Origin: Escherichia coli
Lineage (GTDB): Bacteria; Pseudomonadota; Gammaproteobacteria; Enterobacterales; Enterobacteriaceae
Length of the DNA: 30,915 nt
Assembly (NCBI RefSeq): GCF_003334335.1
Contig: NZ_QOWQ01000048.1
Direction: 5' to 3' (one strand)
Below, one piece after another: positions 1-30,915 of the stretch. Positions within the stretch are counted from its first letter, which is position 1. Each line of letters begins with the position of its first letter. The translations under genes were made by a program, and so were the position numbers. The notes beneath the pieces are model-generated. The model was not told where the DNA came from and ran no database searches. It saw only the letters and a list, made by a program, of their open reading frames with translations.

Positions 1-264
1 ATGAAGTTCCGGCTCGGTGGTTTCGAGGCCATAAAGTCGGCTTACATGGCCCAGGTGCAGTACAGCATGTGGGTGACACGAAAAGATGCCTGGTACTTTG
101 CCAACTATGACCCGCGTATGAAGCGTGAAGGACTGCATTATGTCGTGGTTGAGCGGGATGAAAAGTACATGGCGAGTTTTGACGAGATGGTGCCGGTGTT
201 CATCGAAAAAATGGACGAGGCACTGGCTGAAATTGGTTTTGTATTTGGGGAGCAATGGCGATGA
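1..264 (+). CDS. exo: Lambda-type exonuclease (Red-alpha), C-terminal fragment, 5'-partial at the window edge
   Basis: The 87-aa translation ending ...[11 protein letters not shown] matches the lambda Exo C-terminus as I recall it; the ATG at position 1 is internal to the real gene. Confidence 0.85.
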
Positions 265-443
265 CGCATCCTCACGATAATATCCGGGTAGGCGCAATCA
301 CTTTCGTCTACTCCGTTACAAAGCGAGGCTGGGTATTTCCCGGCCTTTCTGTTATCCGAAATCCACTGAAAGCACAGCGGCTGGCTGAGGAGATAAATAA
401 TAAACGAGGGGCTGTATGCACAAAGCATCTCCTGTTGAGTTAA
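255..443 (+). CDS. Small lambda orf60a-like protein
   Basis: A 62-aa ORF overlapping the exo 3' end, in the position and orientation of lambda orf60a. The true start may be the second ATG at 261. Confidence 0.65.
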
Positions 444-607
444 GAACGAGTATCGAGATGGCACATAGCCTTGCTCAAATTGGAATCAGGTTTGTGCCAA
501 TACCAGTAGAAACAGACGAAGAATTTCATACGTTAGCCACATCCCTTTCACAAAAACTGGAAATGATGGTGGCGAAAGCAGAAGCAGATGAGAGAGACCA
601 GGTATGA
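416..607 (+). CDS. Small lambda orf63-like protein
   Basis: A 63-aa ORF overlapping the previous ORF by 28 nt, the same arrangement as orf60a/orf63 in lambda. Confidence 0.7.
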   Translation: MHKASPVELRTSIEMAHSLAQIGIRFVPIPVETDEEFHTLATSLSQKLEMMVAKAEADERDQV

Positions 608-687
608 CAACCACTGAATGCATTTTTCTGGCAGCGGGCTTCATATTCTGTGTGCTTATGCTTGCCGACATGGGGCTTGTTCAGTGA
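604..687 (+). CDS. Possible 27-aa hydrophobic micropeptide (MTTTECIFLAAGFIFCVLMLADMGLVQ)
   Basis: Its ATG overlaps the orf63-like TGA stop in an ATGA arrangement (604..607). The sequence is a continuous hydrophobic stretch long enough for one transmembrane helix. Confidence 0.35.
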   Translation: MTTTECIFLAAGFIFCVLMLADMGLVQ

Positions 688-899
688 CACCTCAGCAGGA
701 AAACGCCCTTCGCAGCATTGCCCGTCAGGCTAATTCTGAAATCAAAAAAGCCAGACAGCAGTTTCCGGATAAAAACGTCGATGACATTTGCCGTAGCGTA
801 CTGAAGAAGCACCGCGAAACGGTAACGCTGATGGGATTCACACCGACTCACTTAAGTCTGGCAATCGGTATGTTAAACGGCGTCTTTAAGGAACGGTGA
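618..899 (+). CDS. Hypothetical protein in the orf61 region; start uncertain
   Basis: A 93-aa ORF in a third frame, followed by a hairpin plus T-run. It overlaps the micropeptide ORF, so which of the two is expressed is unresolved. Confidence 0.4.
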   Translation: MHFSGSGLHILCAYACRHGACSVTPQQENALRSIARQANSEIKKARQQFPDKNVDDICRSVLKKHRETVTLMGFTPTHLSLAIGMLNGVFKER

Positions 900-921
900 A
901 CATGAAAAGCAAAATCATCAG

Positions 922-945
922 GGAGCTACAGGCTCCTTTTTTATT
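922..945 (+). terminator. Intrinsic-terminator-like hairpin plus T-tract
   Basis: GGAGC-tacag-GCTCC followed by TTTTTTATT. Confidence 0.45.
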
Positions 946-997
946 ATTCGCATTCACCCTCAAGCGTATTAACCAACAATTCAGGGATTAATGGAAG

Positions 998-1219
998 ATG
1001 GCAGACCTCATTGATTCAGCATCAGAAATTGAAGAATTACAGCGCAACACAGCAATAAAAATGCGCCGCCTGAACCACCAGGCTATATCTGCCACTCATT
1101 GTTGTGAGTGTGGCGATCCGATAGATGAACGAAGACGCCTGGCCGTTCAGGGTTGTCGGACTTGTGCAAGTTGCCAGGAGGATCTGGAACTTATCAGTAA
1201 ACAGAGAGGTTCGAAGTGA
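998..1219 (+). CDS. TraR/DksA-family C4 zinc-finger protein (lambda Orf73-like)
   Basis: A 73-aa protein with CxxC...(17)...CxxC (CCECG...CRTCASC), typical of the TraR/DksA zinc finger. Its stop overlaps the next ORF's GTG (GTGA). Confidence 0.8.
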   Translation: MADLIDSASEIEELQRNTAIKMRRLNHQAISATHCCECGDPIDERRRLAVQGCRTCASCQEDLELISKQRGSK

Positions 1220-1467
1220 GCGTAATTCACTCTCAGGCACTGCGTGAAGCGGCAGAGCAGGCAATGCATGACAACTGGGGATTTGACGCGGACCTTTTCC
1301 ATGAGCTGGTAACACCATCGATTGTGCTGACACTGCTGGATGAACGGGAAAGAAACCAGCAGTACATCAAACGCCGCGACCAGGAGAACGAGGATATTGC
1401 GCTAACGGTGAGGAAACTGCGTGTTGAGCTGGAGACAGCAAAAATCAAAACTCAACGAGCAGCGTGA
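1216..1467 (+). CDS. Ea22-like protein, N-terminal part, ended by an in-frame TGA at 1465
   Basis: GTG start overlapping the upstream stop; the 83-aa product resembles the conserved Ea22 N-terminus (recalled, not searched). The same frame stays open after the TGA for 53 more codons, to a TAG at 1627..1629. Confidence 0.6.
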   Translation: MSVIHSQALREAAEQAMHDNWGFDADLFHELVTPSIVLTLLDERERNQQYIKRRDQENEDIALTVRKLRVELETAKIKTQRAA

Positions 1468-1765
1468 GTAGAAGGTGTTATCTCGGATGGAAGTAAGCGT
1501 ATTGCTGAACTGGAGGCCTGGGTTGAATACACAAGAGCTGCATACGTAAGAGCAAAAGACAAGGGAGATTTGATCAGAGTTATTACCCGACAACCAACGG
1601 GATTTTACGCTTACGTACCATGTAATTAGGAATCCTTGAAGTGGCAGCCTAACTGCGGATACACTGAAATGGCGATTTGGTAACATGTTTCGCACAAGGC
1701 TGTTACTACGCTTAAAGATAATCAGCCATGATTAAACGCTTTGTAAAAAGTAAAAGGAAATTACA

Positions 1766-2380
1766 ATGAAAAAATCAATACTAATTTTAGGGCTTACGTT
1801 AATTGTCTCATCTCAAATACCATCGGCAATGGCAAAAAATGAATCAAGACTTTGGGTTGTTGTTGATCGAACGGAAAGACATACCTGCCCTTCAAGTAAA
1901 TGTGGAGTGGCTGGGAAACTATTTTTCAGGGAAGGCGTAGATTTTCTAGAAAAAAAAGGTGAATGGGTTCGTATAACTGAGCCATATTCAGCCTCATGTG
2001 TGGGAGGGGAAAGCGAATATATTAAAGAAGGTAATAAATCCTGCACAAGAAAAAACGGAATCGTCAATGGCAAGTTTTCAGAATGGGTTAAACTTAGTGA
2101 TCTTAGCAGTGAAAGGCCATCAGATCCTGCTGAAAATGCGAGCGGAGATGATACTTTAATCAAAGGATCTGATGACTACCGTATATACAAAAAAGAGTTT
2201 TCTTCGGCAGCTAGGAAGTTAATAAACGAAGGGGTCTGCACGGAAAGCGACTTTAAGGAAATCGGAGGGTGGATGGCATCAAGCAATAAGGGGAAAAACA
2301 TCTATTTCACATATTGCGGAGGAATGACGTTGTCGAACAGAATATACCTAGACGTTAAAAGTGGAAAGACTTTTAGATAA
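1766..2380 (+). CDS. Hypothetical secreted (periplasmic) protein, 204 aa, AT-rich accessory gene
   Basis: SD AAGGAAA 8 nt upstream of the ATG. N-terminal signal peptide MKKSILILGLTLIVSSQIPSAMA with an AMA-K signal peptidase I site and no lipobox. The mature part has 7 Cys. Codon usage is visibly AT-rich compared with the flanking genes. Confidence 0.75.
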   Translation: MKKSILILGLTLIVSSQIPSAMAKNESRLWVVVDRTERHTCPSSKCGVAGKLFFREGVDFLEKKGEWVRITEPYSASCVGGESEYIKEGNKSCTRKNGIVNGKFSEWVKLSDLSSERPSDPAENASGDDTLIKGSDDYRIYKKEFSSAARKLINEGVCTESDFKEIGGWMASSNKGKNIYFTYCGGMTLSNRIYLDVKSGKTFR

Positions 2381-2451
2381 TATGATATTACCAATGACAG
2401 TATTAATTTAATGCCTCCATAGAATTATCTCTAGGAAGTATGTATAAGAAA

Positions 2452-2488
2452 AGCCCGCACAATGAGCTGCTGCGGGCTTTGTGTTATT
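2452..2488 (+). terminator. Intrinsic terminator downstream of the secreted-protein gene
   Basis: AGCCCGCA-(11-nt loop)-TGCGGGCT followed by TTGTGTTATT. Confidence 0.55.
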
Positions 2489-2673
2489 CGCCATATTTTA
2501 TGAAGCAAATACGACACTATAGATAATTAAGCGTTGCTGGTTGTCGATTCCTCACTCACTCCTGTTGATGGCTCTCTTCTTGTATGTGCCATTGAAGGGT
2601 AATATCGAGTAAAAAGATACCGGAAGTATCCGCGCCGCCATGATTGTCTTTCTCCTAATGCAGGAAAAGCAGA

Positions 2674-3012
2674 ATGGCTAAATCATCAGCAGAGCGCAAA
2701 GTCGATCAGAGAGCCAAGCAAGCATCATCCGGTATGCGTAAGCTGGAGCTTGTACTTGATGCTCAGGAAATTGAAATGCTGGATCGTAACTGAGCCACGC
2801 GCCGCTTCAGGCATGCGCCTTACGAGTTTGGTGAGTACATCGCGTTACTGAGCCGCCAGGATGATGCACGTGTGCGCTGGCGTATAAAATCGATCAGCAG
2901 AAAACGTTGCGGTAAGTGCGGCGAGAGAGTTCCTGTTAATTCATGCCCGTGTAATGGTGACTCACAATGCTGGGTGACCAAAGGCTGGCACGAAACAAAA
3001 TTAATGATATAA
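2674..3012 (+). pseudogene. Cys-rich small-protein ORF interrupted by a single in-frame TGA (2791..2793); possibly an ea8.5-type gene
   Basis: Frame 1 is open from 2644 to 3009 apart from the one TGA. The C-terminal half carries CGKC...CPC...C, a zinc-ribbon-like pattern. SD AGGAAA precedes the ATG at 2674. The ORF track shows no intact ORF of 60 aa or more on either strand here. Confidence 0.45.
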
Positions 3013-3040
3013 ATCTCTGTGACATGTCACGGAGGCGGCA

Positions 3041-3469
3041 ATGAAATTAGACCAGCAATATCTAAAAGATCTACTTATCGCATTCGAAAAAACTCATGGC
3101 CCTGACACGATGCTTAGTGAACTAGAGGATAATGGCTTTAATAGATATGACCAAAATTTTATTTTCCATATGCGATTATTATGCGACTACGAATTAATAG
3201 TCAGGGTTGATGGAAAACCTGGGTTCGGTCATATAATGTCCAACGAGTTAGGGGAAGGTGTTGGATATAGTTGGATCGAAGTACCACTGAGGTTGACAGC
3301 AAGAGGGCATGATTTTATTGCTGACTTGCGTCAAAAGGAGGTCTGGCAAACTATAAAAACAAACTTTAAGGATGAGGGAATTAGTACACTAATAAGTGTT
3401 TCAAAATCACTAGCAAAAGGCTTTGCAAGGAAAAAGATAAAAGATATTACAGGAATAGATATTGAATAA
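3041..3469 (+). CDS. Hypothetical cytoplasmic protein, 142 aa, AT-rich accessory gene
   Basis: Strong SD GGAGG 5 nt upstream. No signal peptide or transmembrane segment. Followed by its own terminator. No catalytic motif that I recognise. Confidence 0.7.
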   Translation: MKLDQQYLKDLLIAFEKTHGPDTMLSELEDNGFNRYDQNFIFHMRLLCDYELIVRVDGKPGFGHIMSNELGEGVGYSWIEVPLRLTARGHDFIADLRQKEVWQTIKTNFKDEGISTLISVSKSLAKGFARKKIKDITGIDIE

Positions 3470-3513
3470 TTCTTAGCATCAGCAACTACTGCCTTTGGTG
3501 GAAATTATATCTG

Positions 3514-3540
3514 AACTCGCTACGGCGAGTTTTGTTTTAT
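3514..3540 (+). terminator. Intrinsic terminator downstream of the 142-aa gene
   Basis: AACTCGC-tacg-GCGAGTT followed by TTGTTTTAT. Confidence 0.6.
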
Positions 3541-3551
3541 GGAGATGATAA

Positions 3552-3719
3552 ATGCACTTCCGAGTCACAGGTGAATGGAATGGAGAACCATTCAACAGAG
3601 TTATCGAAGCAGAGAACATCAATGACTGCTATGACCACTGGATGATATGGGCGCAGATAGCACATGCAGACATAACCAATATTCGAATTGAAGAACTGAA
3701 AGAACACCAAGCCGCCTGA
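3552..3719 (+). CDS. Hypothetical 55-aa protein upstream of xis
   Basis: GGAG 8 nt upstream of the ATG; the ORF ends inside a hairpin plus T-run. Confidence 0.4.
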   Translation: MHFRVTGEWNGEPFNRVIEAENINDCYDHWMIWAQIAHADITNIRIEELKEHQAA

Positions 3720-3732
3720 TGGCGGTTTTTTC
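3709..3732 (+). terminator. Terminator-like hairpin just upstream of xis
   Basis: CCGCC-tgat-GGCGG followed by TTTTTTC. In lambda-type logic this would be read through by antiterminated pL transcripts. Confidence 0.45.
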
Positions 3733-3758
3733 TTGCGTGTAATTGCGGAGACTTTGCG

Positions 3759-3977
3759 ATGTACTTGACACTTCAGGAGTGGAACGCTCGCCAGCGACGC
3801 CCAAGAAGCCTTGAAACAGTTCGTCGATGGGTGCGCGAATGCAGGATATTCCCTCCTCCGGTTAAGGATGGAAGAGAATATCTGTTCCACGAATCAGCGG
3901 TAAAGGTTGACTTAAATCGACCAGTAACAGGTAGCCTTTTGAAGAGGATCAGAAATGGGAAGAAGGCGAAGTCATGA
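3759..3977 (+). CDS. xis: Excisionase
   Basis: The 72-aa product MYLTLQEWNARQRRPRSLETVRRWVRECRIF... matches lambda Xis as I recall it; it overlaps the int start by 23 nt, as in lambda. Confidence 0.95.
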   Translation: MYLTLQEWNARQRRPRSLETVRRWVRECRIFPPPVKDGREYLFHESAVKVDLNRPVTGSLLKRIRNGKKAKS

Positions 3978-5025
3978 GCGCCGGGATTTACCCCCTAACC
4001 TTTATATAAGAAACAATGGATATTACTGCTACAGGGACCCAAGGACGGGTAAAGAGTTTGGATTAGGCCGAGACAGGCGAATCGCAATCACTGAAGCTAT
4101 ACAGGCCAACATTGAGTTATTTTCAGGACACAAACACAAGCCTCTGACAGCGAGAATCAACAGTGATAATTCCGTTACGTTACATTCATGGCTTGATCGC
4201 TACGAAAAAATCCTGGCCAGCAGAGGAATCAAGCAGAAGACACTCATAAATTACATGAGCAAAATTAAAGCAATAAGGAGGGGTCTGCCTGATGCTCCAC
4301 TTGAAGACATCACCACAAAAGAAATTGCGGCAATGCTCAATGGATACATAGACGAGGGAAAGGCGGCATCAGCCAAGTTAATCAGATCAACACTGAGCGA
4401 TGCATTCCGAGAGGCTATGGCTGAAGGCCATATAACAACAAACCCGGTCGCAGCCACTCGCGCTGCAAAATCAGAGGTAAGGAGATCAAGACTTACGGCT
4501 GACGAATACCTGAAAATTTATCAAGCAGCAGAATCATCACCATGTTGGCTTAGACTTGCAATGGAACTGGCTGTTGTTACCGGGCAGCGAGTTGGTGATT
4601 TATGCGAAATGAAGTGGTCTGATATCGTAGATGGATATCTTTATGTCGAGCAAAGCAAAACAGGCGTAAAAATTGCCATCCCAACAACATTGCATGTTGA
4701 TGCTCTCGGGATATCAATGAAGGAAACACTTGATAAATGCAAAAAGATTCTTGGCGGAGAAACCATAATTGCATCTACTCGTCGTGAACCGCTTTCATCC
4801 GGCACAGTATCAAGGTATTTTATGCGCGCACGAAAAGCATCAGGTCTCTCCTTCGAAGGGGATCCGCCAACCTTTCACGAGTTGCGCAGTTTGTCTGCAA
4901 GACTCTATGAGAAGCAGATAAGCGATAAATTTGCTCAACATCTTCTCGGGCATAAGTCGGACACCATGGCATCACAGTATCGTGATGACAGAGGCAGGGA
5001 GTGGGACAAAATTGAAATCAAATAA
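3955..5025 (+). CDS. int: Tyrosine integrase, lambda Int type
   Basis: The 356-aa product MGRRRSHERRDLPPNLYIRNNGYYCYRDPRTGKEF... is essentially lambda Int by recollection; its 3' end faces the att site. Confidence 0.97.
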   Translation: MGRRRSHERRDLPPNLYIRNNGYYCYRDPRTGKEFGLGRDRRIAITEAIQANIELFSGHKHKPLTARINSDNSVTLHSWLDRYEKILASRGIKQKTLINYMSKIKAIRRGLPDAPLEDITTKEIAAMLNGYIDEGKAASAKLIRSTLSDAFREAMAEGHITTNPVAATRAAKSEVRRSRLTADEYLKIYQAAESSPCWLRLAMELAVVTGQRVGDLCEMKWSDIVDGYLYVEQSKTGVKIAIPTTLHVDALGISMKETLDKCKKILGGETIIASTRREPLSSGTVSRYFMRARKASGLSFEGDPPTFHELRSLSARLYEKQISDKFAQHLLGHKSDTMASQYRDDRGREWDKIEIK

Positions 5026-5113
5026 TGATTTTATTTTGACTGATAGTGACCTGTTCGTTGCAACAAATTGATAAGCAATGCTTTTTTATAATGCCAACTT
5101 AGTATAAAAAAGC
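5026..5113. other. attL (B-O-P') junction: P' arm with Int arm-type sites and the 15-bp common core
   Basis: The core TTAGTATAAAAAAGC at 5099..5113 is the reverse complement of the lambda att core GCTTTTTTATACTAA. Arm-type sites ATTTTGACTG and ATAGTGACCT lie at about 5034..5053. Host B-side sequence AGGCTTCA follows the core. Confidence 0.85.
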
Positions 5114-5159
5114 AGGCTTCAACGGATTCATTTTTCTATTTCATAGCCCGGAGCAACCT

Positions 5160-6443
5160 GTGAACACATTTTCAGTTTCCCGTCTGGCGCTGGCATTGGC
5201 TTTTGGCGTGACGCTGACCGCCTGTAGCTCAACCCCGCCCGATCAACGTCCTTCTGATCAAACCGCGCCTGGTACCTCTTCTCGCCCGATTCTGTCGGCA
5301 AAAGAAGCGCAGAATTTCGATGCTCAACACTATTTTGCATCCCTGACACCAGGTGCTGCAGCGTGGAATCCTTCCCCGATTACCCTGCCTGCGCAACCTG
5401 ACTTTGTTGTCGGCCCGGCGGGCACTCAAGGTGTAACGCATACCACGATTCAGGCGGCGGTAGATGCGGCAATTATCAAGCGTACCAACAAGCGCCAGTA
5501 TATTGCCGTGATGCCTGGTGAGTATCAGGGAACGGTATATGTCCCTGCCGCTCCGGGTGGAATTACTCTGTACGGTACAGGTGAAAAACCGATTGATGTG
5601 AAGATTGGGCTTTCCCTTGATGGTGGCATGAGCCCTGCCGACTGGCGTCACGACGTCAACCCGCGCGGCAAATATATGCCAGGTAAACCAGCGTGGTATA
5701 TGTACGATAGCTGCCAGAGCAAACGCAGCGACAGTATCGGTGTTCTCTGCTCTGCGGTCTTCTGGTCACAAAACAATGGCCTGCAACTGCAAAATCTGAC
5801 CATCGAAAACACGCTGGGCGATAGCGTAGATGCAGGTAACCATCCGGCGGTGGCACTGCGTACTGATGGTGACCAGGTACAGATTAACAACGTTAACATT
5901 CTCGGTCGTCAGAACACCTTCTTTGTCACCAACAGCGGTGTGCAGAACCGTCTGGAAACAAATCGTCAGCCGCGTACGCTGGTGACCAACAGCTACATTG
6001 AAGGGGATGTGGATATCGTTTCTGGTCGCGGCGCAGTGGTGTTCGATAACACCGAATTCCGCGTGGTGAACTCACGTACTCAGCAAGAAGCGTATGTGTT
6101 TGCACCGGCTACGCTGTCCAACATTTACTACGGTTTCCTCGCCGTAAACAGCCGTTTCAATGCTTTCGGTGATGGTGTGGCGCAACTGGGCCGCTCGCTG
6201 GATGTTGATGCCAATACCAACGGTCAGGTGGTGATCCGTGATAGCGCCATCAACGAAGGTTTTAACACGGCTAAACCGTGGGCCGATGCGGTGATCTCTA
6301 ATCGTCCGTTTGCGGGTAATACCGGCAGCGTAGATGATAACGACGAAATACAGCGCAATCTGAATGACACTAACTACAACCGCATGTGGGAATACAATAA
6401 CCGCGGCGTGGGTAGTAAAGTGGTTGCAGAGGCGAAGAAGTAA
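5160..6443 (+). CDS. ybhC: Outer-membrane lipoprotein of the pectinesterase-like / acyl-CoA thioesterase family
   Basis: GTG start; lipoprotein signal peptide with lipobox LTAC; the 427-aa product matches E. coli YbhC. Confidence 0.93.
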   Translation: MNTFSVSRLALALAFGVTLTACSSTPPDQRPSDQTAPGTSSRPILSAKEAQNFDAQHYFASLTPGAAAWNPSPITLPAQPDFVVGPAGTQGVTHTTIQAAVDAAIIKRTNKRQYIAVMPGEYQGTVYVPAAPGGITLYGTGEKPIDVKIGLSLDGGMSPADWRHDVNPRGKYMPGKPAWYMYDSCQSKRSDSIGVLCSAVFWSQNNGLQLQNLTIENTLGDSVDAGNHPAVALRTDGDQVQINNVNILGRQNTFFVTNSGVQNRLETNRQPRTLVTNSYIEGDVDIVSGRGAVVFDNTEFRVVNSRTQQEAYVFAPATLSNIYYGFLAVNSRFNAFGDGVAQLGRSLDVDANTNGQVVIRDSAINEGFNTAKPWADAVISNRPFAGNTGSVDDNDEIQRNLNDTNYNRMWEYNNRGVGSKVVAEAKK

Positions 6444-6448
6444 GAGCA

Positions 6449-6660
<212 letters not shown>

Positions 6661-27617: not shown

Positions 27618-28559
27618 ATGGCGCACTCACACTCACACACGTCCTCACACCTGCCAGAAGATAATAATGCTCGTCGCTTGTTGTATGCTTTCGGCGTGAC
27701 TGCCGGGTTTATGCTGGTAGAAGTCGTTGGTGGTTTTCTTTCTGGTTCTCTGGCATTGCTGGCCGATGCGGGTCATATGTTGACCGATACTGCCGCCCTG
27801 CTTTTCGCCCTACTCGCCGTGCAATTTTCACGTCGTCCTCCCACCATTCGCCACACTTTCGGTTGGCTAAGACTGACCACGCTCGCGGCGTTTGTGAATG
27901 CCATAGCCCTCGTGGTAATTACCATTTTGATTGTCTGGGAGGCGATAGAACGCTTCCGCACGCCGCGTCCGGTCGAGGGCGGCATGATGATGGCAATTGC
28001 CGTGGCTGGGTTGCTGGCAAATATACTTTCTTTCTGGTTACTTCATCACGGCAGCGAAGAGAAAAACCTCAACGTACGAGCAGCGGCACTGCATGTGCTC
28101 GGGGACCTGCTGGGTTCGGTTGGGGCTATTATTGCCGCGTTGATTATTATCTGGACTGGCTGGACACCTGCTGACCCCATTCTCTCGATACTGGTGTCGC
28201 TTCTGGTTCTGCGTAGCGCGTGGCGACTGTTGAAAGATAGCGTGAATGAATTACTTGAAGGTGCACCGGTATCGCTGGATATCGCTGAACTGAAGCGTCG
28301 TATGTGCCGGGAAATCCCGGAAGTCCGCAATGTGCACCATGTACATGTATGGATGGTAGGCGAGAAGCCGGTGATGACGTTGCATGTGCAGGTGATCCCG
28401 CCACACGATCACGATGCCTTGTTGGATCAGATCCAACACTACCTGATGGATCACTATCAGATTGAGCACGCCACCATTCAGATGGAATATCAACCTTGTC
28501 ATGGGCCAGACTGCCACCTGAATGAAGGGGTGTCTGGCCATTCACATCATCACCATTAA
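27618..28559 (+). CDS. zitB: Cation-diffusion-facilitator zinc efflux transporter
   Basis: A 313-aa product with a His-rich N-terminus and C-terminus. Confidence 0.95.
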
Positions 28560-30632: not shown

Positions 30633-30708
30633 TGGTGGGTCGTGCAGGATTCGAACCTGCGACCAATTGATTAAAAGTCAACTGCTCTACCAACTGAGCT
30701 AACGACCC
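30633..30708 (-). tRNA. lysQ: tRNA-Lys (anticodon UUU), with encoded CCA
   Basis: The reverse complement reads GGGTCGTTAGCTCAGTTGGTAGAGCAGTTGACTTTTAATCAATTGGTCGCAGGTTCGAATCCTGCACGACCCACCA. The lysQ name is assigned by position and is tentative. Confidence 0.93.
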
Positions 30709-30840
30709 CTTGCGGGATTATGCTGCCTTAATCATTCAGGATGGTGGGTCGTGCAGGATGACTCGACTTCGTCTCGCCCTTCGGGCCGTTGCTAACGCAA
30801 CGTTATCCTTCACGTTCTCTACCAGTAACCACCTTTAAAT

Positions 30841-30915
30841 TGGTGGGTCGTGCAGGATTCGAACCTGCGACCAATTGATTAAAAGTCAACTGCTCTACCA
30901 ACTGAGCTAACGACC
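30841..30915 (-). tRNA. lysZ: tRNA-Lys (UUU), second copy, missing its first 5' nucleotide at the window edge
   Basis: Identical to the 30633..30708 copy over 75 nt. The gene name is tentative. Confidence 0.9.

Follow-up and report, generated by a model that had tools for sequence, protein, structure and literature searches.

Gene content of the prophage end

The DNA analysed here (the window) is a 30,915-nucleotide stretch of the Escherichia coli contig NZ_QOWQ01000048.1. Positions 1 to 5113 carry phage-related genes, and host sequence follows. The features of the phage part were identified as follows, using lambda, the free lambdoid phage Chlobot (PP925838.1) and E. coli strains such as PEC1009 for comparison:

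1 to 264, + strand: exo (lambda exonuclease), 3′ part, truncated at the window boundary; 97% to lambda exo and annotated as "lambda exonuclease family protein" in PEC1009
255 to 443, + strand: short DUF1317 ORF of the early-left region, equivalent to the 60-aa ORF of lambda, inside a lambda-homologous block; phrog_1998 (E = 1e-33) and RefSeq annotation in relatives
416 to 607, + strand: short DUF1382 ORF of the early-left region, equivalent to the 63-aa ORF of lambda; phrog_292 (E = 3e-36) and annotation in relatives
618 to 899 (684 to 899 in the annotation of relatives), + strand: small early-left ORF; phrog_303 (E = 1.8e-42, full 93 aa)
998 to 1219, + strand: DksA/TraR-type C4 zinc-finger protein; phrog_54 (E = 3.8e-25) and TraR/DksA annotation in relatives
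1216 to 1467, + strand: Ea22-like gene, truncated to the N-terminal 83 codons; phrog_250 and phrog_368 matched in their N-terminal parts only
1515 to 3503: non-lambda substitution for distal ea22 and ea8.5; no BLAST alignment to lambda, colinear with Chlobot at 97.9%
1766 to 2380, + strand: moron-like cargo protein of 204 aa, signal-like at its N terminus; phrog_8310 (E = 3.6e-136, full length)
2534 to 2599, + strand: UmuD-like or "DNA repair protein" fragment, a pseudogene remnant; coordinates transferred from PEC1009 (L002, 45962 to 46027)
2674 to 3012, + strand: regulator-like ORF of 112 codons with an in-frame TGA at 2791 to 2793; phrog_536, "transcriptional regulator" (E = 7.8e-48, the match spanning the stop)
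3041 to 3469, + strand: DUF2513 protein, 142 aa; Pfam PF10711 (E = 4.2e-10) and phrog_585 (E = 2.3e-34)
3552 to 3719, + strand: 55-aa ORF common to lambda, inside the block 3504 to 5113; phrog_676 (E = 1.7e-39)
3759 to 3977, + strand: xis (excisionase), intact
3955 to 5025, + strand: int (lambda-type tyrosine integrase), intact

The zinc-finger protein also matched TIGR02419 (E = 1.1e-14), under the curated cut-off of that model, and a terminator-like hairpin was found at 3709 to 3728, after the 55-aa ORF. Three genes inside the window are decayed: the truncated Ea22-like gene, flagged by RefSeq in relatives as a frameshifted or incomplete pseudogene; the UmuD-like fragment; and the regulator-like ORF with the nonsense codon at 2791, which is annotated with an internal stop in relatives and is unbroken in strain ES5.

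The cargo ORFs of the non-lambda block, which has a lower G + C content (38–44%), fell into PHROGs families of unknown function only and had no match in NCBIfam. Pfam returned DUF2513 and sub-threshold matches, those of the 204-aa protein being weak hits to SH3_3 and a lipoprotein signal. Defence or anti-defence cargo in this block was considered and rejected; the sole PADLOC match, of the zinc finger to a restriction-enzyme model (E = 0.006), was dismissed, and neither the 204-aa protein nor the DUF2513 protein matched any PADLOC model. At Rfam gathering thresholds, no structured RNA was found in positions 1 to 5113, and the matches in the rest of the window were limited to host tRNAs, RtT and REP-derived naRNA4. 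A promoter scan gave fewer promoter-like sites than were obtained in shuffled sequences.

Comparison with lambda and phage Chlobot

Alignment to lambda covered 61% of positions 1 to 5113, in two blocks (1 to 1514 and 3504 to 5113) at 97–98% identity. The alignment is not colinear across the whole int-to-exo region, as 1515 to 3503 has no lambda counterpart; where lambda has distal ea22 and ea8.5, the window carries approximately 2 kb of other cargo. As judged from these alignments, the prophage is a lambda mosaic, of lambda type but not lambda itself. All 5,113 bases are colinear with Chlobot, the non-lambda cargo included, and in Chlobot a lambda-type attP lies directly after int. Unlike the window, Chlobot is a phage genome (46.5 kb) whose attachment site is attP and not a prophage–host junction, and it has a full "UmuD-like protein" CDS where the window has the fragment.

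The attL junction

The original prediction placed a 15-bp core at 5099 to 5113, in a B-O-P′ layout with Int arm-type sites on the prophage side and host sequence on the ybhC side. The features found around this position are as follows:

5022 to 5031, − strand: Int arm-type site P′3, 2 mismatches, identical to lambda
5033 to 5042, − strand: Int arm-type site P′2, 2 mismatches, identical to lambda
5043 to 5052, − strand: Int arm-type site P′1, 1 mismatch, identical to lambda
5061 to 5073, − strand: IHF site H′, exact WATCAANNNNTTR consensus, identical to lambda
5095 to 5103, + strand: Int core-type site C′, exact consensus, CAACTTAGT / CAACTTNNT
5099 to 5113, − strand: common core (O) of attL, 15 bp, exact and unique in the window
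5114 to 5159: host B arm, until the start of ybhC; 300 of 300 bases identical to K-12 left of attB
5160 to 6443, + strand: ybhC, from the ORF and the annotation of K-12 and relatives

Each element of that layout was borne out. The lambda core, GCTTTTTTATACTAA, was matched exactly on the minus strand at 5099 to 5113, corresponding to the misc_recomb feature at 27724 to 27738 of the lambda record J02459, and it remained single-copy in the 30.9-kb window even when 1 mismatch was allowed (chance expectation, 0). Lambda homology in BLAST ended precisely at position 5113. When the junction was aligned to lambda attP and E. coli attB, as had been proposed, the P′ side was that of lambda and the B side that of K-12. 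On the prophage side, identity to the lambda P′ arm and int was 150/150, 297/300 and 982/1000 over increasing lengths, against only approximately 26% to K-12 B′; on the host side, identity to the K-12 MG1655 attB flank and ybhC was 150/150, 300/300 and 999/1000, against approximately 20% to the lambda P arm. Further into the window come gal and mod genes.

Three tandem matches to the arm-type consensus MAGTCACTAT were found, namely AGGTCACTAT (5043 to 5052), CAGTCAAAAT (5033 to 5042) and AAATCATTAT (5022 to 5031). The arm-type, IHF and core-type consensus sequences used here are those of the lambda literature. The "int 4" feature of J02459 was dropped as confirmation of the P′ sites: it spans 27814 to 27854, inside the 3′ end of int, and barely touches the arm-type matches (27785 to 27815 in lambda coordinates); consensus matching and identity to lambda were therefore relied on. 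The arrangement is that of the attL site described for lambda (PMC4880445), and the 15-bp core, the 150 bases of P′ arm with P′1 to P′3 and H′, and the K-12 B arm are the same as in lambda attL of a K-12 lysogen. By its sequence, the junction is a bona fide attL (B-O-C′-P′) at the canonical lambda site between ybhC and ybhB.

Integrase, excisionase and sib

Int and Xis had been called lambda-like in the original prediction, and alignment left no substantial difference from lambda: Int was identical at 351 of 356 residues and Xis at 71 of 72 (98.6% each). As in lambda, the two genes overlap by 23 bases and are oriented towards ybhC. The five substitutions in Int (I155M, H164P, A245T, I248V and E264K) spare the catalytic residues R212, K235, H308, R311, H333 and Y342, all of which are present in the alignment; the one substitution in Xis is G59S. 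The pN/pS of int against lambda was 0.12, suggesting purifying selection on int and compatible with recent functionality.

The P arm of attP is where sib sits; it would therefore lie at the other prophage end in the integrated state, and int transcripts would run into ybhC instead of sib. The window agrees with this expectation, which was also part of the original prediction: ybhC, not sib, is downstream of int, and a search of the window tolerating up to 3 mismatches gave no match to the sib hairpin. The hairpin was found in attP of lambda and of Chlobot, and at attR of PEC1009. The sib hairpin is thus apart from int, as in the lysogenic configuration.

Related elements at the lambda attachment site

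Among complete E. coli genomes, 99 have the same junction, with at least 80% coverage of window positions 1 to 6500. Twenty-four were examined, and in every one the ybhB–ybhC interval holds an element of 9–24 kb (17.3–24.1 kb in 22 genomes and approximately 9 kb in ATCC 8739 and ES5) that lacks immunity, replication and head genes. In PEC1009, a ren fragment abuts a recT/bet fragment, forming a ren|bet deletion joint, and neither cI, cro, O and P nor head genes were found in the element. Its far end, beside ybhB, is a P-O-B′ junction with P1, P2, the sib/tI hairpin and a B′ arm identical to K-12. The attR core of PEC1009, ACTTTTTTATACTAA, matches the lambda core at 14 of 15 positions. In relatives, attR has an A as the first base of the core; a Chlobot-type origin of this base was considered and rejected, as Chlobot attP has G, like lambda. 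The sequence comparison assigns the A to a P arm that is diverged close to the core. The window holds no second copy of the core; therefore, attR lies outside it, as originally predicted.

The element in E. coli Crooks (ATCC 8739) at ybhC-ybhB has been listed as "lambdaCr" (PMC3032704, Table 2). It and the same element in approximately 100 other complete genomes share with the window 99.8–100% DNA identity over the prophage end and the junction, and the same pseudogenes. Among these relatives, the RefSeq protein accessions of Int, Xis, the 204-aa protein and the DUF2513 protein are identical. ATCC 8739 differs in two ways: an IS1, absent from the window, separates the Ea22-like fragment from the 204-aa gene, and only approximately 9 kb is retained. 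A dgcX-carrying element (P377; EAEC/O104:H4, PMC10459773) has the same integration site, int-xis end beside ybhC and decay pattern; it differs in its traR-xis cargo and at its far end, where a diguanylate cyclase gene is among the contents. The host flank of the window is 100% identical to those of P377, 23CRST047 and others; P377 has a different remnant on this identical flank, and in 23CRST047 exo through traR is absent.

Contamination by laboratory or vector lambda DNA, or an assembly chimera of lambda and E. coli, was given next to no weight as a source of the junction. Lambda DNA is a frequent laboratory contaminant, and the phage collection contains one record, named "Campylobacter phage", that is essentially lambda. 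Against this, the breakpoint lies precisely at the core and is followed by the correct B arm, positions 1515 to 3503 are not lambda, and the identical junction recurs in the 99 independent complete genomes. Taken as a whole, the evidence is best explained by positions 1 to 5113 being, very probably, the int-proximal end of a lambdoid prophage that was integrated at lambda attB by Int recombination and is bounded by attL.

No complete genome of the collection matched positions 1 to 1600 exactly; the best match had 6 clustered mismatches, and this six-SNP patch, at 851 to 1007, sets the window apart from all matching complete genomes. In sequence terms, the patch shows exchange with other lambdoid DNA. 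Such exchange would also suit a tandem or composite arrangement, for example with a second lambdoid phage in the hybrid att site of the remnant, in which Int and attL belong to an element other than the one on the ybhB side. Varied lambdoid elements do occupy attB(lambda): an attR-type junction was detected there in 1920 of 5426 genomes, or approximately one third of complete E. coli, and P377 has its different remnant. In each relative examined, ybhB and ybhC are separated by a single element whose two cores are an attR-like one and an attL one, with no tandem array, and we regard an arrangement of this kind as very improbable.

State of the whole element

The part of the element upstream of exo is outside the window, so its state was extrapolated from the relatives. 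On that basis, and from the three decayed genes inside the window, the unseen rest is probably a defective remnant of the lambdaCr type, without immunity, replication and head regions. Such a remnant would be non-inducible, with no obvious promoter input to int and xis (pL/N or cII-dependent pI), even though these two ORFs and attL are intact. Given the 9–24 kb remnants in 24 of 24 relatives, a completeness analysis would most likely score the element as incomplete.

The other possibility of some weight is that a complete, inducible Chlobot-like prophage of approximately 46 kb ends in the window, its remainder lying upstream. Chlobot, deposited as a complete and presumably viable phage, carries the same 5.1-kb module, 97.9% colinear and with attP after int; int, xis and attL are all intact in the window; and the source genome is absent from the complete genomes searched. 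However, the window is 99.9% identical to PEC1009 and the remnant-carrying relatives, compared with 97.9% to Chlobot, it has the pseudogenes of the remnants, including the nonsense codon at 2791, and none of the 24 genomes with the same end has an element retaining immunity, replication or head genes. A complete prophage is therefore considered unlikely, and the defective remnant is the preferred reading.

Proposed mechanism

The junction was very probably formed by Int-mediated site-specific recombination between phage attP and attB inside the common core, after which ybhC was bordered by host B, and the P′ arm of the phage, with int and xis, lay across the core from it. As established for lambda, Int would occupy the arm-type sites P′1 and P′2 with its N-terminal domain, IHF at H′ would bend the P′ arm, and the C-terminal domains of Int would bridge to the core-type sites C′ and B. 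In excision, the attL complex would pair with an attR complex carrying Xis, and attP and attB would be restored. The attL/attR mechanism, the arm bridges and Tyr342 have been described (PMC4880445).

Significance

Lambda attL is among the best-understood DNA sites in biology, and both it and this lambdaCr-type element are already known; little here is new. The first reading of the att sites from raw sequence was base-accurate. For the source E. coli, the lambda attachment site is occupied and no attB is free; what is known of lambda predicts consequences for lambda lysogeny in such a strain and for integration tools based on lambda Int.

Intact int, xis, attL and attR are present on growth-deficient remnants, and an attR-type junction occurs in approximately one third of genomes; these observations could be a sign of domestication. 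We regard it as very improbable that selection maintains the remnant as an element that is domesticated or depends on a helper. If so, the element might be excised or mobilised by a superinfecting lambdoid phage, or it might occupy attB and so redirect or block lysogeny by incoming lambda-type phages; alternatively, the selected function could be the cargo (the 204-aa secreted protein and the DUF2513 protein). The element also adds a further example of stepwise lambdoid prophage decay at one hot spot.

attL junction

The 15-bp lambda common core GCTTTTTTATACTAA, annotated as the misc_recomb feature 27724..27738 of lambda (J02459), occurred as a single exact copy at 5099..5113 on the minus strand; no second copy was found in the 30.9-kb window with 1 mismatch allowed (chance expectation, 0). 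When window 1..5300 was compared with lambda 27300..31700 by BLAST, the alignment stopped exactly at 5113, and homology to K-12 MG1655 started at 5095, corresponding to the core and a few adjacent bases that match by chance. Outward from the core, the prophage side was identical to the lambda P' arm and int at 50/50, 100/100, 150/150, 297/300, and 982/1000 positions, versus approximately 26% when this stretch was compared with K-12 B'; the host side was identical to K-12 left of attB at 150/150, 300/300, and 999/1000 positions, versus approximately 20% identity to the lambda P arm. By sequence comparison, the junction is a clean B-O-P' (attL). The original prediction, which placed the core here between a phage P' arm and the host ybhC side, was borne out by alignment to both lambda attP and E. 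coli attB, and its observation and interpretation of the prophage end are correct. The prophage end is a known kind of feature and, in effect, a known element.

Sites were sought with (C/A)AGTCACTAT, which we take from the lambda literature to be the arm-type consensus and used to assign P'1, P'2, and P'3. Three tandem matches, predicted by sequence matching, were found on the P' arm and correspond to lambda 27785..27815.

Predicted sites on the P' side of the junction
5043..5052, P'1, AGGTCACTAT, arm-type consensus match
5033..5042, P'2, CAGTCAAAAT, arm-type consensus match
5022..5031, P'3, AAATCATTAT, arm-type consensus match
5061..5073, H' (IHF), exact IHF consensus match
5095..5103, C' core-type site, CAACTTAGT, exact core-type consensus match

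This layout is that given for lambda attL (BOC'P'), with arm-type sites in the P' arm, which IHF bends at H', and with Int bridging P'1-C' and P'2-B in the excisive complex (PMC4880445). The J02459 feature "int 4" (27814..27854; 515..555 in our lambda locus L001) was considered as evidence for P' sites and set aside, as its overlap did not fit P'1-P'3. It sits within the 3' end of int and does not cover these sites, and its coordinates are probably an imprecise legacy annotation.

int, xis, and sib

Both reading frames were intact, and the lambda-like Int and Xis of the original prediction proved on alignment to be nearly identical to those of lambda.

Integration genes
3955..5025, int, 356 aa, 351/356 identical to lambda Int
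3759..3977, xis, 71/72 identical to lambda Xis

Int retained all catalytic residues (R212, K235, H308, R311, H333, and Y342), and int differed from that of lambda by 19 nucleotides (pN/pS 0.12). On the same strand, 5' of xis and int, were the 3' part of exo, three small early-left ORFs, and a DksA/TraR zinc-finger gene; an Ea22-like gene, also upstream and on this strand, comprised the first 83 codons only.

Retroregulation by sib and the roles of pL and pI are part of the general lambda background. As expected in the original prediction, sib was absent downstream of int in the window and present at attR of the near-identical strain PEC1009. Terminator prediction gave no candidate site between 3728 and 5300, and with sib displaced, transcription through int would run on towards ybhC. 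By analogy to established lambda biology, the junction would have been formed by Int-catalysed exchange inside the core, and excision would require attL-attR pairing with Int, IHF, and Xis (PMC4880445).

Mosaic composition

Only 1..1514 (97.0%) and 3504..5113 (97.9%) could be aligned with lambda, indicating that the phage was not lambda itself. The free lambdoid phage Chlobot (PP925838.1), with a lambda-type attP directly after int, was colinear with all 5,113 bases at 97.9%. The 2-kb block 1515..3503 had a lower G+C content, and its cargo genes matched no defence-system models.

Genes in the block
1766..2380, 204-aa protein with a signal-like N-terminus; full-length match to phrog_8310, a PHROG of unknown function
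within 1515..3503, UmuD-like gene fragment
2674..3012, 112-codon ORF, "transcriptional regulator" PHROG; single in-frame TGA at 2791..2793
within 1515..3503, DUF2513 protein gene

The 204-aa protein otherwise gave only a sub-threshold SH3_3 match. Around its gene, G+C is 38-40%; a GC-rich hairpin (2452..2468) follows, and gene and hairpin are a moron-like cargo unit. This internal stop in the 112-codon ORF is also flagged in PEC1009, 23CRST047, and ATCC 8739; since the ORF is intact in ES5 (L008 46964..47302), the TGA is a derived trait, a nonsense mutation common to one sub-lineage.

PEC1009 differed from the window at 6 positions, all in 851..1007. These differences from the closest genomes, PEC1009 among them, span 157 bases, with none in the other approximately 6.3 kb compared; some alleles are those of lambda, Chlobot, or ES5, and three occur in none of the references. 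From its sequence, 851..1007 looks like a short stretch introduced by recombination from another lambdoid element, and it is carried by no complete genome in the collection.

Elements at ybhB-ybhC in related genomes

At least 80% of window 1..6500 was present in one place in 99 complete E. coli genomes (best, 99.9%). The PEC1009 element, 22.7 kb from ybhB to ybhC, contained IS fragments, an AraC-type gene, tail-fibre genes, a lom fragment, and a DLP12-like late and nin region, without cI/cro, N, O/P, or head genes. At its far end, P1, P2, and the sib/tI hairpin were found in a P arm, followed by ACTTTTTTATACTAA and a B' identical to K-12. In relatives, the attR P arm (L002 25782..25955) is colinear with that of lambda, with divergence in the half nearer the core, where the Xis, Fis, and H2 sites lie; the first core base is A, not G, which makes the C core-type site a perfect CAACTTNNT match.

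In PEC1009, a ren fragment directly adjoins a recT/bet fragment; this contact is a deletion joint, at which the immunity, N, and replication region has been lost entirely. The two fragments lie on opposite strands in relatives (L002 42447..43015; L006 16997..17790). Junction coordinates gave element lengths of 17.3-24.1 kb (median, 20.5 kb) for the 22 genomes with both junctions listed. The element is approximately 9 kb in ATCC 8739 (Crooks) and ES5; lambda and Chlobot, for scale, have 48.5 and 46.5 kb. Strain 23CRST047 had a further deletion from exo through traR, joining bet to the Ea22-like fragment. In P377, the host flank was 100% identical to the window, yet the remnant was a different one of approximately 13 kb. 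This remnant is even more decayed, and a sensor-domain diguanylate cyclase gene adjoins ybhB (L005 27679..29010), fitting the dgcX found with varying prophages at ybhC-ybhB (PMC10459773).

The window begins inside exo. Because the remainder of the prophage lies beyond it and no complete genome in the collection matched window 1..1600 exactly, the state of the source element is judged from its relatives, which make it likely that this element, too, is defective. Were its immunity and early regulatory region deleted as in them, int and xis would be left without known promoter input, so the element would be effectively locked in place.

A 511-base attR-junction query (ybhB, B', core, and 214 bases of the relatives' P arm) was held to at least 80% by 1920 of 5426 complete E. 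coli genomes. This accords with reports of lambdoid elements at ybhC-ybhB, "lambdaB" in strain B and "lambdaCr" in Crooks (E. coli W genome paper, PMC3032704), with the ranking of the site among the most island-rich loci of Escherichia (PMC9580842), and with the description of dgcX there (PMC10459773).

Host features

Two tRNA genes and an RtT element at the far window end (30636..30915), where relatives have the lysine/valine tRNA cluster of the host, are ordinary host features with no relation to the prophage end. REP/BIME-type repeats form a tandem pair at 6459..6653, between ybhC and ybhJ; a 65-nt unit recurs at 6496 and 6589 and a 35-nt unit at 6459 and 6551, and an naRNA4 Rfam match at 6512..6582 scored barely over the gathering threshold.
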